From a virus (lineage: Duplodnaviria; Caudoviricetes): a DNA stretch of 64,000 bases. The translations under genes and the position numbers were made by a program. Below, piece after piece: positions 21,123 to 62,982 of the stretch (within the stretch, counting starts at the first letter, position 1; the number at the start of each line of letters is the position of its first letter). The stretch lies in IMG/VR virus record IMGVR_UViG_3300027983_002389. The stretch is one strand, 5' to 3'. The notes under the pieces were generated by a model. It did not search any database. It saw nothing but the letters and a program-made list of their open reading frames with translations, and had not been told where the DNA came from.

Positions 21123-21662
21123 ATGTCAATCGAAGAAGGTCCGTGGACTCCAAAGCCTCTGATCATGACCATTGAGTCATTGGTTGCCTATGGCTTCAAA
21201 GAATGGCCTGTCAATCAACATGATAAACATGATCGCAATTGGCAGTTTTGCAAAAGAGACGAGCGGGGAAAGAAGCTCTTTGTGACGATTCAATTATGGG
21301 CATTTAGCAAATACAGTAATGCTGATCGAAAGGTTGAAGATTCTTTCGCCGCCGATTCTAGCTTTGACATGAATGGACCCAAAACATTCAATGTCAACAC
21401 AAACGTTAATTACATGACGCCTGCTCAAGTTGTCGAATGGTTTGAGCGTATGCACACCATAATGGGGTGTACATATTATGAACTATATGCTGATGAGCAA
21501 TATAATGAAGATGGCGAAAAAACTTCATTCAATTGTGATGAATGTGGAATATATTTGCCCCCTGAAGATGCAGTTGCTCCATTTCTTTGTCCTAGTTGCA
21601 AGTACCAGAAGGACACTGGCTTTAAGCAAGTGACTCGTCGCTTTCGTCCTAAACGTCGATAA
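21123..21662 (+). CDS. hypothetical protein with C-terminal Zn ribbon
   Basis: CDEC...CPSC. Confidence 0.6.
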   Translation: MSIEEGPWTPKPLIMTIESLVAYGFKEWPVNQHDKHDRNWQFCKRDERGKKLFVTIQLWAFSKYSNADRKVEDSFAADSSFDMNGPKTFNVNTNVNYMTPAQVVEWFERMHTIMGCTYYELYADEQYNEDGEKTSFNCDECGIYLPPEDAVAPFLCPSCKYQKDTGFKQVTRRFRPKRR

Positions 21663-22222
21663 ATCGTTCGTAGCCTTCTTGTCGATGTATTAGTGTTTGC
21701 TTGTGGACTATTTCGATTTCATCTTTTACAAGATCGCTTTTGATGAAAATCAGATCATGGCCAACATATTCCACCAAAGTATATCCTTTGTGTTTTCCTA
21801 GTTTTCTCATTGCTTCAAACGAAGCACCATATGCTACATCTCCTGTCCATCTGTGTTCAGAGTCGTATTTCAGAGCTACGCATTCTGTGGTGAAATTAGC
21901 GTTGAATTCAATGATTACCATTCTTGGATTGTGATTTAACGCTTTCCATACCGATAGATAAAAGATCAAATTCGGGTGGTATTTTATATTTTGAAAATAT
22001 ATCGTTTATGTTTTCTTGGTTGATCGCTTCTTGATGCACGTCATTTGAAGCGACCAAATCAAATTGGATTAACGACCATCCTAATGACTCAAACATTCGT
22101 ATATTTGAATATTCCCAGCCATCGGCAGCACCAAACTCAACAGCTATTTTGTTTGTAGTGCCGATTTTATCGAACCATTTTTGGGATAATAAATCTAGGT
22201 TTGATCTCGAATAACTTTTCAT
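21649..22222 (-). pseudogene. frameshifted FkbM-related methyltransferase-like gene
   Basis: VEFGAADG..SN and FDLLSI in one frame; WKAL..P..VIIEFN and YGAS in another; the expected DIDGND segment is missing at about 21950. Confidence 0.7.
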
Positions 22223-22297
22223 TTTCCGCCCTTTACAAAAACTTTTTTTCATGCTATGATAGATAAGTTCAGCAAACCTTTTTTTGGAGAAACTACT

Positions 22298-23165
22298 GTG
22301 AGTAAGAGCAAGACTAAGCACAAAATGTACGCAACTGGCAGCACTGGCAGCACTGGCAGCACTGGCAGCACTGGCAGCACTGGCAGCACTGGCAGCACTG
22401 GCAACAACTCGGCGTCGGGCTGTCTTTAGCAATCCAACCACTCTCCTCCTCGAACTTCATGGCGGGGAAGGCGGCGAAGATTCTAAGTTATTCGTTGCCG
22501 ATTTACTTGAAACCTATCTCAAATATGCTTCCATCAACGGCCTTAAATACGAAGTATTGACCCAAGAGCATGGCCACGCCATTGCCAAAGTCATGGGCAA
22601 GGGCGTTTGGAAAGCATTTCAAAACGAGCCGGGTAAGCACGTCGTGCAACGTGTACCTCCCACTGAGCGAAGTGGTCGTCGGCAAACATCCATCATTACG
22701 GTTGCTGTGATGCCGTTGCCTCCTGAGAACACTCAGGAGCCGCTTGATGAAAAAGACCTGAATATTATCTGCCAGACGGGCAAGCAAGGCGCAGGTGGAC
22801 AAAACGTCAACAAGGTGGCGTCTGCTGTTCGCATGAAGCATAAGCCAACTGGAATGATGGTCTTCATTAACGGACGAGATCAAAAGCAAAATCTTGATGA
22901 GGCTTTGCGAATTCTGACCTTCAAAGTCAATGAGCAAAAACGACTCAAGGTCGAGGGTGATTACAATCAGTCTCGGAGAACTCAAATGTTGAGTGGTGGA
23001 GACAGAATTGGCGGTAGAGGCGATAAAGTTCGCACCTACAACTTCATTCAGTCTCGTGTGGTCGATCACAGGCTTGGTCGCAAGACCTCGAACGTCAAAG
23101 AATTCATGAAAGGCAATTTTGCCCTTCTGTTTGATGGGGATACCGCAGGTCAGGGCGAAGAGTAA
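22298..23165 (+). CDS. prfA: RF1-type peptide chain release factor lacking domain 1; predicted +1 frameshift at CTT-TAG-C (22424-22430)
   Basis: LELHGGEGGEDSKLF, VQRVPPTE (PxT), GAGGQNVNK, RTYNF; leader ORF 22298-22429 with GGAG SD stops at TAG and the RF body is in the +1 frame. Confidence 0.85.
22334..22403 (+). repeat. 9-bp tandem repeat (ACTGGCAGC)x7 plus partial unit, encoding (TGS)n in the RF leader
   Basis: Read directly from sequence. Confidence 0.95.
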
Positions 23166-23262
23166 TTTGTAAAATTTCGTGGTAGCTTAATTTTAGCTTA
23201 ATTGAGCCGATCTAATGAGCCGATCTACGGATAGATCGGCTCATTTTGTTCCTATATAACAC

Positions 23263-41620: not shown

Positions 41621-41695
41621 TTTTGTAGCCACGTTACATGAACCACTTGTGTTGACTTAAACGAAAACACCTGGGATCGCTCCCAAGTGTTTTCG

Positions 41696-41763
41696 TTTAT
41701 ATCCCTTTGGTGGACTCCATTAAAGCTCGTTTATATCCCTTTGGTGGACTCCATTAAAGCTCG
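41696..41763. repeat. 34-bp tandem duplication of the VOC gene 3' end
   Basis: TTTATATCCCTTTGGTGGACTCCATTAAAGCTCG x2. Confidence 0.95.
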
Positions 41764-51279: not shown

Positions 51280-51414
51280 CTTTACAACCATACTTTTTTG
51301 TGGTAAAATATCACATCAAAAGCCGGATATTCGATATATTCGGCTAAAGTTTGATTGTGGTCTGCCGATATAACTAACAACTACAAACCACTTTCGCCGA
51401 ACTGGAAAACACTC

Positions 51415-53034
51415 ATGTCAAAGAAACTTGGAAAATCCAGCTATCCTGCTGGTCACGGAGCAAGCGATTTTCAATGTTTTGGTCCCCCTGCTCTGGAAGA
51501 TGGCAATTTTGACACCTGCAAGATCGCCGATATGGGATCATTCTCACAGGAAGAAAAGGACTCGAATAAGTATTACCACGCAGCCGTGGTGAAGTCCAAA
51601 ATCTCCAACGCATTCTACACATATTTCGAGTGGGGCCGTGTCGGCGCATCGTCGCCACAGTTCCAGATGATTGAATGTGCCAACGAAGCTGAATCGCAGC
51701 GTGAATTCGCCGCTCAGTGCCACGATAAAAACGACAAGCGTGGCGTGTGGTCTACTGTCGCTGGTCTTCGTACTCTGACAGCTAAACCCGGCAAGGACGT
51801 ATATTTGGTTCGTCAATTGACAACTCGCAGCACTGGTCTGCCTGACGCCAAGACAATCAAATATATTGATCCTAATACTCCGAAAAAGCCTGATCCCAAG
51901 GCGGTATCTGGTTCGGTCGTCAAGAAGTCTTCAAAGAAAGCCGATGCGCATACGAGTCGTTTATTGTCCGATTTGATCGGCGGCACGATTAAGTACACCC
52001 GTTCGGCGATGGCTGATGATAGCCTACCTACTCAGACGGCTATTGACCAAGCCCGCACCATTATCACTGAGGCGCAGAAGCGTGTTGGTGCTGTGGGTGA
52101 TGATTTGGACGATCAAATTGCAGATAAAGAGCTTCGGGTATATTCGTCCGAATTGTATCGGCGTATTCCGAAGGTCAAAGCTGTCGGCACACCTGATAGT
52201 GTGTGGATTCTGAGTGGCAACAACATCCTGTCTTGGCAACAGGACTTAGACGCCTTTGAGTCTGCTCTGACGGGACAGGCCCAGGTCGAAAACGATAGTG
52301 ATTCCGATCCGTTCCACGGTCTGCCGCTTCACATGGAGTGGATTGACCCCAAGACTGATCTTGGTAAATTCCTCACCTTTTGGTGGCCAAAGGCGACGGC
52401 AAATCGTCACGGCCATATTGGGTCGATGAAAATTAAGAATCTGTGGAAGGTGGATCGTCACGGTGACGACGAAAAGTTCACCAAGACACAGGATAAGATT
52501 TATTCTGAAATTGCCGGGGCCAAACTTAGTGAGTCCCCATTGTTTCAGCCCAGCGAACGGCACGATGTTGATCCAAAGCGTCGTGAAGTATTCAGTGGTT
52601 CCAATACTGCTCTATTGTTTCACGGAACTCGTTCAGTTAACGTGAAGGGCATCTTGGAGACAAATTTCCGTCTGCCAAAACAATTGGTCGGAGTGCCAAT
52701 TGCCGGTGCTATGTTTGGCCCGTTGCACTATGAAGCTGATGATTGGAAAAAATCAGCCGGATATACGTCGCTTCGGGGTTCAATCTGGTCTGGCGGTAGC
52801 GGTAGCGTTGCTGGGCGGTCTGCCTTTATGTTTGCTAACGATGTTGTTTTGGGAGAACCATATGTTGCTCCTGGACCTCATGGTTATCAGAATGCACCGA
52901 AAGGAACTCATTGCATTTTTGGTATGGGCAAAAACCACGGCAAGAATCGTAATAGTGGAGTTGAAAACAACGAGTGGGTTGTTCCTGATATTTCGCAAGT
53001 TCGCATCAGATACTTGGCAGAATTTGATTCTTGA
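51415..53034 (+). CDS. WGR-domain poly(ADP-ribose) polymerase-like protein (WGR, regulatory, catalytic)
   Basis: NKYY...EWGRVG; S.ELY..IP; LLFHGTR, GAMFG..Y, KSAGY, V.LG, NNEWV, RYL.EF. Confidence 0.85.
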   Translation: MSKKLGKSSYPAGHGASDFQCFGPPALEDGNFDTCKIADMGSFSQEEKDSNKYYHAAVVKSKISNAFYTYFEWGRVGASSPQFQMIECANEAESQREFAAQCHDKNDKRGVWSTVAGLRTLTAKPGKDVYLVRQLTTRSTGLPDAKTIKYIDPNTPKKPDPKAVSGSVVKKSSKKADAHTSRLLSDLIGGTIKYTRSAMADDSLPTQTAIDQARTIITEAQKRVGAVGDDLDDQIADKELRVYSSELYRRIPKVKAVGTPDSVWILSGNNILSWQQDLDAFESALTGQAQVENDSDSDPFHGLPLHMEWIDPKTDLGKFLTFWWPKATANRHGHIGSMKIKNLWKVDRHGDDEKFTKTQDKIYSEIAGAKLSESPLFQPSERHDVDPKRREVFSGSNTALLFHGTRSVNVKGILETNFRLPKQLVGVPIAGAMFGPLHYEADDWKKSAGYTSLRGSIWSGGSGSVAGRSAFMFANDVVLGEPYVAPGPHGYQNAPKGTHCIFGMGKNHGKNRNSGVENNEWVVPDISQVRIRYLAEFDS

Positions 53035-56890: not shown

Positions 56891-56924
56891 CTGCCCGGTC
56901 ATCGTGGGGATGACCGGGCAGTTT
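56891..56924 (+). terminator. intrinsic terminator
   Basis: CTGCCCGGTCATC/GATGACCGGGCAG followed by TTT. Confidence 0.7.
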
Positions 56925-56964
56925 GTGTTTACAGAACACGTCAAATGGGGTAGAATCATCCATC

Positions 56965-58371
56965 ATGTTTACTCTAATGGAAGCATACGAAGCACTGAAT
57001 GGTCACGACGAATTTGCCGTAAAGGTTTACGACGGCAAAGTTTCGTTTGATTACATCGTTATTTTTCCGGGGTCTTTTGATGCCACCGAGGACGAAATTC
57101 GGCATCGTGCTTATCTCCTGTGGGAGCAAGCTGGTGGTCCGGTTATAGACGCTGCACAATTCTGGCTACAAGCAGAACGAGATATTAAGCATTTTGCTCA
57201 CCTTCGTCGTAATTTTCGTGGCGTTACTTTTGACGTAGCAACCGGCGAAATGATTTCGTTGCCACTCCATAAGTTTTTTAACGTCAACCAAATTCCAGAA
57301 ACTCAATATGATGTTATCAAGCATCATGATGCTGTTATCTATGAGAAGATGGATGGGACGATGATTCACTTCTTCCTGCATAACGGGAAGTTGGAGGCTG
57401 CAACCTGTCGTTCGACGCATCACCCATTGGCACATGAAGCCTTGGCCTTGGCTAAGAAGAATGGCATTGATGGAATGATTGTCGATACCATCAAGAATGG
57501 TTGGACGCCAATCTTTGAATTTGTTGCTCCGCATAATCAAGTTGTGGTGCAATATGCTGAACTACGTTTGGTGCATCTGGTATCTCGTGAACGCAAATCA
57601 GGGAAATATCATTACGATAATTCTTTTCCTGATAAGGCACGGCGTTTTGAATTTAAGTTTGGTCAGGTTTTCAATAACCTAGATCATACTGAGTTCGAGG
57701 GATATGTTTGTCATTTGCCAAATATGGTTGTCAAAGCAAAGACTCCCTGGTACATGGAACGTCACCGGGCTGTAGACGCTTTGATGCGCCCGGCATACAA
57801 ACTGTACAGAATCGTATTCGATGGTCTGATGGACGACTTGATCGCCATTGCCACCGAGCCTTACAAGCCAGCACTTCGTAAGGTTTACGAAGAGGCGCAA
57901 CGTGATCTTCTTAATGAGAAGCGGCGAGTCGAGGCAGAATTTGCCGAGGTTGAGGAACTTTCTGAAAAATCTTTGACTCTAACGGACGAACCAAATCCGT
58001 TGACCGATTTGGAGAAAGAAGTCAATCTCCTGAAGGATCAAGACAAGCGTTTGGGCGCAATCAAGCGGGTTCGTGAATTCACTGGACTTGGCTTGAACGA
58101 GTCGAAGGCTTATGTTGAGCGTGGTGTGTGGCCACACGGTTTCATTCGTCGTGATGAACAAGAATTTGAGGCACGTCGGCTGATTCGCAACAAGGGTGGC
58201 TTTGCTGATCTTGTTCGAGAAAAGTATCTGGACGACTTCAATCTCATCATGGCCTTGTATCAAGGGCGTGATCCTAGCGATGGGATCAAAGAACGGCTGA
58301 TGGAGGTTTATCGTGCCAAATACCCCCAAAAACTCTACGCCAAACTTGAGGATAAGAATGAAGATGGGTAA
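56965..58371 (+). CDS. T4 Rnl1-like RNA ligase with DUF2934 and bL12-CTD-like insertions
   Basis: FRGVTFD, PLHKFFN, YEKMDGT, FEFV.P.N..VV.Y, EGYV, K.K..WY...H. Confidence 0.85.
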   Translation: MFTLMEAYEALNGHDEFAVKVYDGKVSFDYIVIFPGSFDATEDEIRHRAYLLWEQAGGPVIDAAQFWLQAERDIKHFAHLRRNFRGVTFDVATGEMISLPLHKFFNVNQIPETQYDVIKHHDAVIYEKMDGTMIHFFLHNGKLEAATCRSTHHPLAHEALALAKKNGIDGMIVDTIKNGWTPIFEFVAPHNQVVVQYAELRLVHLVSRERKSGKYHYDNSFPDKARRFEFKFGQVFNNLDHTEFEGYVCHLPNMVVKAKTPWYMERHRAVDALMRPAYKLYRIVFDGLMDDLIAIATEPYKPALRKVYEEAQRDLLNEKRRVEAEFAEVEELSEKSLTLTDEPNPLTDLEKEVNLLKDQDKRLGAIKRVREFTGLGLNESKAYVERGVWPHGFIRRDEQEFEARRLIRNKGGFADLVREKYLDDFNLIMALYQGRDPSDGIKERLMEVYRAKYPQKLYAKLEDKNEDG

Positions 58372-61713: not shown

Positions 61714-61918
61714 ACCCTGCAAGCCTGATCACAATGGCGAGTGTCTAGTGTGTGATTGCTGGTTGACAGAATGCGCACTAGACAGATTGCGAGTGGGCGA
61801 CTTCAAGTATGAAACCTTGGACGAACTCTTGGCAATGTTCAAGGATCACTTAACAGAAGACGAAGTTCGCAATTTGCGAAATACGGGACAAACAAATGAG
61901 CAAGATCACACTGCATGA
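61700..61918 (+). CDS. hypothetical Cys-rich protein
   Basis: C.PDHNGECL.CDCW...C. Confidence 0.55.
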   Translation: MVENKPCKPDHNGECLVCDCWLTECALDRLRVGDFKYETLDELLAMFKDHLTEDEVRNLRNTGQTNEQDHTA

Positions 61919-62906
61919 TAAAGTTCGGGGTAATTTCTTGGGTGTCGCTATTGGCGATGCTTTAGGCAAGCCCGTCGAAATGTGCAAGCCTGCATATATC
62001 GCCGATAAATATGGTCGAATCACAGATTACTTGGACTGCTCCAGTCACAAGTATTTTGAGAACGACCACAAAGGCACTACAACCGATGACTGGCAGCTTA
62101 CCAAGGCCGTCGCTCGTGCCATGATTACGACTGGCAAGTTCGATCTGGACGAAATTGCCGTTGAGCATGGCAAGGAATTCGCCATTAGCGTTCGTGGTTG
62201 GGGCGGATCGACGAGAGAGGCCGTGGCTCGTATTGTTGAAGGAATTCACTGGAAGGAAGCTGGCAAGACCACCGAGAAGAATCGTGGCCTGGGCAATGGC
62301 GTTTCCATGAAGGCATCACCAGCAGGGCTTTATATGGCTCTGACAAATCCCAATTGTGATAATCCTCCTTGGGATGAGCATGTTAAAAATATCGTTGATA
62401 TGGCGATCATGACGCACTACACCAGTATTGCTGTGACCAGTGGGTTGGCTCACGCATTTGCCACGTTGAAATGTTTTTGCTCCACTCCTGAAACCTTTGA
62501 TCCTAAAGCCTTTGTGAATATCATTATTGGCGCTTCTCAGTTGGGACGACAGCATTGTCCTGGCACTCTCAATGACGATATGCAGAATCGTTTTGAGCGT
62601 TTGAAGAAGCCATATTCTCCTCAGAGTATTATAGACCCTGAAGAGTTTGGTGGCGGCTCTTGCTATGTTTATGACAGTTTGCCGTTTACATACGCATGGT
62701 TCCTTCGTGATCCTCAAAGCATTGAGAGTCTATACGACTGTGTAAGCGCCGGTGGCGATGCCGATAGCAACGGGTCGATGCTTGCCGGGCTGTTGGGTGC
62801 ATTGCACGGAGCCAGTATTTTTCCTCAGCATTTGGTCGATGGATTGAAGAACAAAGACGAAGTTCTGGAAATCGCCGACCAGTTCTATGCCAAATTCACC
62901 AAATAG
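61896..62906 (+). CDS. ADP-ribosylglycohydrolase (DraG/ARH family)
   Basis: G.AIGDALG.P.E, TDD, GNG..M, TH, GGDADS...AG.LLGA. Confidence 0.92.
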   Translation: MSKITLHDKVRGNFLGVAIGDALGKPVEMCKPAYIADKYGRITDYLDCSSHKYFENDHKGTTTDDWQLTKAVARAMITTGKFDLDEIAVEHGKEFAISVRGWGGSTREAVARIVEGIHWKEAGKTTEKNRGLGNGVSMKASPAGLYMALTNPNCDNPPWDEHVKNIVDMAIMTHYTSIAVTSGLAHAFATLKCFCSTPETFDPKAFVNIIIGASQLGRQHCPGTLNDDMQNRFERLKKPYSPQSIIDPEEFGGGSCYVYDSLPFTYAWFLRDPQSIESLYDCVSAGGDADSNGSMLAGLLGALHGASIFPQHLVDGLKNKDEVLEIADQFYAKFTK

Positions 62907-62982
62907 GTCGAACCAAATGCCAAGATTGCTCTCTATGCCAAATTCACCAAATAGGTCGAACCAAATGCCAAGATTGCTCTCT
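62884..62982 (+). repeat. 48-bp tandem duplication that doubles a GGTCGAACC-N14-CTCTCT motif
   Basis: Unit 62884-62931 repeated at 62932-62979. Confidence 0.95.

Follow-up and report, generated by a model that had tools for sequence, protein, structure and literature searches.

We analysed a 64,000-nt stretch of viral DNA (IMG/VR record IMGVR_UViG_3300027983_002389, hereafter the window), which sits on a contig of 462,616 bp and represents the translation and RNA-repair neighbourhood of a huge freshwater phage. In addition to the features listed with their coordinates in Table 1, the window encodes MetRS, an ArgRS-like protein, an HD protein, a RlaP-type nucleotidyltransferase, a tRNA-Met and ClpX. 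It also contains two perfect tandem duplications, one of 34 nt (2.1 copies) at 41693-41763, just after the tRNA-Met, and one of 48 nt (2.1 copies) at 62884-62982.

The locus considered here consists of a promoter-like site, a short leader (ORF0), a longer reading frame in the +1 frame relative to the leader (ORF1) and an intrinsic terminator. The promoter-like site is found in the divergent intergenic region between the leader and a minus-strand gene starting near 22224, and its match to consensus is without significance when taken alone, with shuffled sequence yielding 2.8 such matches per region. The divergent neighbour (21649-22225, minus strand) has a peculiarity of its own: its coding sequence falls into two ORFs that overlap near 21930-21970 but lie in different frames (...EFDLLSIGMESV.. 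/ ..LSVWKALNHNPRMVIIEFN). Searches of Pfam and PHROG gave no match for it, and either a broken gene or a further change of frame could account for the split.

Read from the GTG at 22298, the leader comprises 43 sense codons, MSKSKTKHKMYA(TGS)7TGNNSASGCL. Its beginning (MSKSK...) and its end (...NNSASGCL) fit the pattern of close relatives, M-[SAE]-K ... (G)NS[SA]A-x-x-C-L, and the middle of that common pattern is replaced by a ACTGGCAGC repeat that is specific to the window. Since the repeat unit is 9 nt long, its copy number cannot alter the frame. The short-read contigs of all four sequencing runs break inside this repeat and nowhere else, and an Rfam search returned only a sub-threshold chance match, of a miRNA model to the same repeat. 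The +1 frame is closed by a TGA at 22299-22301 and open from 22302, and the first ATG, GTG or TTG that it offers is the TTG at 22557. From the AGC at 22428 it reads SNPTTLLLELHGGEGGEDSKLF... and continues to the stop TAA at 23163-23165, so that a product shifted at the end of the leader would have 43 + 245 = 288 residues.

The locus had been singled out from its letters as a phage RF1-type release factor gated by a +1 frameshift at CUU-UAG-C, an amber mirror of bacterial prfB autoregulation. On re-reading, all the base-level statements of this original prediction (the promoter letters, the GGAG, the GTG leader, the CTT-TAG and the limits of the +1 frame) are correct, as are the product size of about 288 residues and the remark that any SD-like stimulator is weak, the window having only CGGGC to offer upstream of the CTT.

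Table 1. Positions of features in the window (1-based; a dash-separated pair gives first and last nucleotide)
Feature	Position	Strand	Remark
Ro60/TROVE-like protein with vWA domain	4488-6203		
Sigma-70-like promoter, TTTACA-N17-TATGAT with TG extension	22232-22260	+	10/12 consensus matches
Shine-Dalgarno GGAG, 8 nt 5' of leader start	22286-22289	+	read from sequence
Leader ORF0, GTG + 42 codons, then TAG	22298-22429	+	43-aa peptide if termination wins
Perfect 9-nt tandem repeat of ACTGGCAGC, 7.8 copies	22334-22403	+	encodes (TGS)7 in leader; frame-neutral
Putative shift site TGT CTT TAG C	22421-22430	+	E-site UGU, P-site CUU->UUU, A-site UAG, fourth base C
ORF1 (+1 frame), 245 codons + TAA	22428-23165	+	RF1-type domains 2-4
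PPT, PxT-type stop-codon recognition tripeptide in QRVPPTERSGRRQTS	22656-22664	+	
GGQ peptidyl-tRNA hydrolysis motif	22794-22802	+	invariant G123 G124 Q125 in alignment A1
Intrinsic terminator, 14-bp stem, 4-nt loop, T-rich tail	23214-23245	+	
PARP-like catalytic domain with WGR domain	51355-53034		
Rnl1-type RNA ligase, one ORF with DUF2934 segment and short ribosomal L7/L12 C-terminal domain match	56923-58371		
ADP-ribosylglycohydrolase	61896-62906		

A gene interrupted by a stop codon first of all raises the question of whether the bases are right. Contigs from four studies (freshwater at depth 343, estuary, soil and glacier) span the site without a frame-changing difference; the glacier contig carries an in-frame insertion of ACC after 22436. 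The identity of the site in contigs of four studies rules out an assembly error. Nor does the genetic code account for the interruption. Of the plus-strand ORFs in the window that reach 100 aa, 40 end in TAA, 25 in TGA and 15 in TAG; ORF coverage and stop usage both fit the standard code, and we rejected stop-codon reassignment after finding no real gain from reading any of the three stops as sense. The same holds for the relatives described below: the flanks of related frameshift loci carry no sign of recoding, flank ORF coverage is equal for loci with TGA and with TAG at the site, and the stop usage of flanking genes does not differ between phages of these two kinds. One local detail sets the shift-site TAG apart, in that it is followed by C, yet C follows none of the 15 TAG gene ends in the window.

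The encoded protein

In the RF-frame translation, homology to Pfam PCRF and RF-1 and to NCBIfam RF1 begins at residues 46-47, three codons past the site. Among NCBIfam profiles the RF1 models score best (NF001859, 209.5 bits; TIGR00019, 198.9 bits), followed by RF2 (128.8 bits) and PrfH (50.6 bits). Both RF1 scores fall under their equivalog cut-offs (209.5 vs 400 and 198.9 vs 423), and the PrfH score likewise lies below its cut-off (TIGR03072, 50.6 vs 166.65). The RF1 profile match spans positions 105-336 and leaves positions 1-104, that is domain 1, unmatched. Alignment to RF1 structures gives the same picture, covering residues ~110-342 of chains of ~360 residues with a phmmer score of 143 bits, compared with 49 bits for PrfH structures. 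An AlphaFold model (pLDDT 89) superimposes on domains 2-4 of ribosome-bound RF1 with a TM score of 0.81-0.82 over ~240 residues, and its first strand begins four residues past the shift site. Domain 1, some 105 residues in RF1, is thus replaced by an unrelated leader of 43 aa.

The recognition loop QRVPPTERSGRRQTS fits the RF1 signature QRVPxTE...TS and has the Gln and Thr positions of RF1. The RF2 tripeptide SPF, which our prfB controls carry, is absent and PPT stands in its place. The RF1-type identity originally proposed is borne out by PPT together with GGQ, by the best NCBIfam score and by a tree that puts the family on the RF1 side. As judged from sequence comparison and the predicted fold, the gene product is an RF1-type factor without domain 1 that carries the leader as an N-terminal tail. 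In a few relatives (L008, L017 and protein P0062) PxT has been lost, their loops reading PSND or PDND instead of PPTE, and this loss is unrelated to the stop at the shift site.

The CUU-stop cassette in relatives

A protein search revealed a large family of RF1-like proteins of 150-293 aa, several of them encoded on contigs of 390-670 kb. We compared on DNA 35 viral loci, 80 metagenome loci and six contigs encoding the closest matches, locating each gene by tblastn anchoring. Verified on DNA, 28 loci of the short family have a leader that is short, cannot otherwise be aligned and ends in CTT-stop. The codon preceding CTT is mostly TGT and occasionally TGG, TGC, TCT, TTT, GGT, TAT or TCG; in the alignment of the window's own subclade the core TG[T/G]-CTT-T is invariant. 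The leaders span 7-60 codons, start with ATG or GTG and often begin M-S/K-K. The distance from the site to the GxGG motif is usually exactly 12 codons, and the RF frame has no conserved start. At three loci (L013, L028 and L034) the RF frame is open for no more than 3-6 codons upstream of the site, so that the change of frame can be placed at the site itself. By chance, a CTT-stop hexamer would be expected in the right frame and place in ~2% of loci. As a positive control, the same scan recovers the canonical full-length prfB genes at L106, L109 and L117 (SD, 3 nt, CTT TGA C, ~110 codons upstream). CTT-stop matches at L071, L076 and L099 lie inside full-length genes and were set aside as chance. 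Two further patterns were seen in the family: L019 has GTT TGA A at the position homologous to CTT TGA, and L007 and L020 have neither CTT-stop nor a convincing ATG, only TTG or GTG near domain 2.

In a maximum-likelihood tree the members of the short family group together in a single clade (SH-aLRT 99), which falls on the RF1 side and at a good distance from the prfB controls. Both the earliest and the latest branches of this clade include CTT-stop sites, and direct ATG starts arose several times. For five related phage genomes of 340-572 kb (four rated 100% complete, one 69%), the short RF is the sole gene with an RF domain. A DNA search of a phage collection gave no match, and among the matches listed for bacterial species genomes there are at least 40 full-length RF1 genes, at least three canonical prfB genes and at least two clearly short genes with a direct start, and no short frameshifted form.

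The elements that stimulate slippage in prfB are distributed unevenly over the family. In 11 of the 28 loci CTT is preceded, at a distance of 2-4 nt as in prfB, by an SD-like AGGAG, GGAGG or GGGGG; L028, for instance, reads GGGGG-TGT-CTT-TGA-C. Neither the window nor any member of its subclade has a match of at least 4 nt to AGGAGG in this role; the subclade alignment has no conserved RNA structure near the site, and a single-sequence fold at the site in the window is unremarkable (z = -1.9). Because both stimulator and conserved structure are missing here, the efficiency of frameshifting may be low or may depend on further stimulators.

Which frame is used directly after the site can be read from the pattern of substitutions. 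Over the 43 codons from the site to the TTG at 22557, the synonymous fraction among seven close relatives is 0.49 when read in the RF frame and drops to 0.12 and 0.06 in the other two. Selection in the RF frame right after the site means that this stretch is translated in that frame, and it rules out the internal start chosen by gene callers. Such starts are common: 81 of 120 database gene calls (P0002-P0121) begin at or past the shift site, and most of the others bear spurious N-terminal extensions in the RF frame. With callers truncating or mis-starting the gene in most assemblies, the release-factor content of phages is mis-annotated.

Two readings would do without a programmed frameshift altogether. 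One takes the locus for a pseudogene or a 1-nt assembly error, as the gene is indeed interrupted under table 11; set against the same site in contigs of four studies, one of them at depth 343, the recurrence of the interruption at an identical codon across 28 diverged loci and an RF body under purifying selection, this is scarcely credible. The other has the RF body start on its own, either at a non-canonical codon of the RF frame such as a CTG in the repeat or at TTG 22557, and the leader be a separate small ORF. The window alone could suggest this: its RF frame is open for 42 codons upstream of the site and contains CTG codons, and gene callers do pick internal starts, the window's own database call being 190 aa. 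The relatives speak differently, however. Their RF frame opens only 3-35 codons upstream and has no conserved start of any kind, whereas the leader-frame ORF always has an ATG or GTG and ends exactly at the CTT-stop; moreover, the stretch from the site to 22557, under purifying selection in the RF frame, codes for the strand and helix with which domain 2 begins, GxGG included. We consider an independent start very improbable. With no start in the RF frame before TTG 22557 and the site recurring in 28 relatives, the need for a +1 shift that had been claimed for the window stands, and a programmed +1 frameshift at CUU-UAG-C is, on these sequence comparisons, very likely.

A sister subfamily of about 30 loci (L031, L032, L043, L045, L050-L066, L073-L084, L092, L094 and L100) likewise encodes RF1-like proteins without domain 1, from a direct ATG (MKRxIEIRAAEGG...). 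A single in-frame TGA is retained in these genes at codon +24 counted from the anchor (the codon that aligns with Gly15 of P0001:43-287, within the GxGG motif); at the position of this TGA, canonical RF1 has a conserved Trp. Their remaining Trp codons are TGG and their flanks are not clearly TGA-recoded. The TGA looks like a second kind of UGA gate.

The stop codon at the site and what it may sense

Our preferred reading, to which we give a probability of about 0.8, is that promoter, leader, RF body and terminator form a single transcription unit that is decoded by a prfB-type programmed +1 frameshift. Ribosomes would initiate at the leader's GTG, translate its 43 codons and pause when CUU, paired with tRNA-Leu, occupies the P site and UAG-C the A site. 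From this pause two outcomes would be open: either a release factor reads UAG and the 43-aa peptide is released, or the tRNA-Leu re-pairs with UUU, AGC is read next, and the 288-aa protein is made, with the leader as its tail, RF1-type domains 2-4 with PPT and GGQ, and no domain 1. Host RF1 should lower expression, and the phage factor should do likewise if it is an active RF1-type factor. As output would be set by how slowly the stop in the A site is decoded, the cassette would amount to a sensor of termination capacity. That the slip takes place, how efficient it is and how far it depends on release factors are things that we infer, as are the activity of the domain-1-less factor and the codons that it reads. 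Amber suppression, which had been named as a second condition that should raise output, would be expected to do the opposite: a suppressor tRNA would occupy the A site, read on in the leader frame and lower frameshifting. Translated for 17 further codons past the TAG, the leader frame has no RF homology.

If the cassette mirrored prfB in every respect, its stop should be the one that its product reads. We find instead that the stop varies. TGA occupies the site in 18 of the 28 DNA-verified loci, TAG in nine (the window, L004, L015, L017, L033, L036, L039, L040 and L121) and TAA in one (L003). Protein calls that run through the site add 33 inferred TGA and four inferred TAG, an inference that was right in the four of four cases checked on DNA. 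All three stops are present among genes at least 78% identical to that of the window: L118, L120 and L122 (78-84% identical) carry TGA, and L003 and L004, with TAA and TAG, encode almost identical proteins. On the tree TAG is scattered, the eight TAG rows needing eight changes, no fewer than with shuffled labels; by this measure TAG at the site is a state that arose repeatedly. The PPT loop and GGQ remain unchanged whichever stop is at the site, without covariation between stop and decoding loop. What the family conserves, as far as its sequences tell, is therefore gating by a stop codon, mostly UGA, and not gating by the cognate stop.

The claim of an amber mirror thus survives in part. The UAG of the window is cognate to a PxT factor by prediction, and a CTT-stop is conserved behind a diverging leader across the 28 loci; TAG itself is labile, and the family places all three stops in front of the same loop. 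Should the predicted factor be active, self-feedback through the cognate UAG would come of itself, and for the window we regard it as plausible. Most relatives, though, have UGA at the site, a codon that one would not expect a PxT factor to recognize, and product feedback therefore cannot serve as the rationale of the cassette in general.

A second gene in the lineage bears on what that rationale might be. In a 340-kb relative (G001), whose RF is 87% identical to that of the window, a small TrpRS-like gene (L194:1468-1500) lacks an in-frame start ahead of its HIGH motif. Upstream of the gene stands GGAG-N7-ATG GTG CGT CTT TGG C, and a ribosome slipping by +1 at CUU-UGG would pass from there into the frame of the synthetase. 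This arrangement fits reuse by the lineage of a CUU-slip module whose A-site codon is matched to the function of the product, and with it the sensing of A-site vacancy. A similar candidate, a CTT-TAG minigene before Pth2, was dropped, as the two relatives that can be read in the right orientation have a plain ATG start.

Taken further, the two genes could be instances of a portable sensor of A-site vacancy, in which a leader ending in CUU-U with a product-matched A-site codon switches on translation-support genes on demand. Were this so, UGG would cause the TrpRS-like enzyme to be made when charged tRNA-Trp is scarce, and UAG would cause the RF1-type factor to be made when termination at UAG or UAA is slow. 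In a bolder form the domain-1-less factor would read UGA as well, which would turn every variant in the family into a true self-feedback loop. We offer the sensor reading as tentative, holding it possible but short of an even chance.

A strict amber mirror of prfB, with UAG selected as the codon that the factor reads and the cassette serving above all as a negative self-feedback loop, draws on the PPT tripeptide, the RF1 Gln and Thr positions and GGQ, on the RF1-readable stops of the nearest relatives (TAG in L004 and L121, TAA in L003), on the CUU-UGG site of the TrpRS-like gene with its function-matched codon, and on the near invariance of the cognate stop in prfB (PMC12421855). The prevalence of TGA (18/28 verified and 33/37 inferred loci), its presence in genes 78-84% identical to the window's, a number of TAG changes on the tree no lower than with shuffled labels and the likeness of the decoding loop in TGA-site and TAG-site genes all count against it, and we think it doubtful. 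At the opposite extreme, the cassette could be a fixed-ratio attenuator that supplies a low constant yield and an N-terminal tail and senses nothing of physiological meaning. The lability of the stop would suit this, as would the restriction of SD-like stimulators to 11 of 28 loci and the freedom of the leaders to vary in length and sequence. Yet a slip at CUU-stop inherently competes with release factors, the site has been kept across deep divergence despite the repeated rise of direct ATG starts, which suggests that it is useful, and the parallel CUU-UGG module points to sensing; a pure attenuator seems to us distinctly unlikely. The variable stop (UGA, UAG or UAA) offers a natural experiment on the role of a stop at such a position, be it product feedback or the sensing of host termination capacity.

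Comparison with known systems

Our literature search found no description of a short, frameshift-gated RF1-type factor in phages, in line with the original claim that no RF1/UAG version had been described. A 2025 survey of prfB covering 8,164 motifs reports 98.6% TGA and no TAG, and no programmed frameshift in prfA (PMC12421855), and all +1 cases at CUU-stop in RECODE are prfB (PMC10885494). Frameshifting of this kind has so far been treated as a peculiarity of prfB; here it would gate an RF1-type factor in huge phages, and the cassette would define a widespread class of release factors without domain 1. Together with the CUU-UGG site of the TrpRS-like gene, it suggests that huge phages may monitor the translation state of their host through ribosome pausing.

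The bacterial prfB cassette combines an SD-like AGGGGG, a 3-nt spacer and CUU UGA C (PMC12421855). The phage cassette resembles it in that a short ORF0 ends in CUU, a stop and C, that the body lies in the +1 frame without a start of its own and encodes a class I release factor, that an SD-like block precedes CUU by 2-4 nt in a part of the relatives, and that competition between termination and slippage is built in. It differs in several respects. The protein is RF1-type (PxT), unlike the RF2 (SPF) of prfB; the shift site is placed where domain 2 begins, domain 1 being absent from the gene, whereas that of prfB is at codon 26, inside domain 1; the stop varies within the family, with UAG in the window, and UGU is the E-site codon in nearly every case; the SD-like stimulator is missing from the window and its subclade; and the carriers are huge phages. 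Bacterial RF1 (prfA; TIGR00019 / NF001859) is the best match in sequence and fold, with a PxT-type loop, GGQ and domains 2-4 in common. The phage protein is set apart from it by the missing first ~105 residues and by scores under the cut-offs, and prfA is without a known programmed frameshift (PMC12421855).

Release factors as such are familiar in phages. Huge phages encode RF1 and RF2 among many translation genes (Al-Shayeb et al. 2020, PMC7162821), and RF1 belongs to the code-change module of the TGA-recoded Jade phages (Borges et al. 2021, bioRxiv 10.1101/2021.08.26.457843). Neither account mentions a frameshift or the loss of domain 1 for these phage RFs, and the window, unlike the recoded phages, uses the standard code. 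Loss of domain 1 also has a precedent in PrfH (RF-H; RtcB-paired; PMC1586002), likewise a class I RF homologue without it; PrfH, however, lacks the RF1 PxT loop that the phage family has kept, and its match to our protein is weak (50.6 bits). The nearest viral parallel comes from another part of the virus world. In Mimivirus and Megavirus, expression of a class I release factor gene takes both a frameshift and a readthrough, which has been read as autoregulation in the bacterial style (Jeudy et al. 2012, PMC3521657). That factor is of the eRF1/aRF1 type and belongs to giant viruses of eukaryotes, and its sites and mechanism are not those of the CUU-stop cassette; what it shares with the phage gene is that a virus encodes a termination factor whose own synthesis needs recoding at one or more internal stops.
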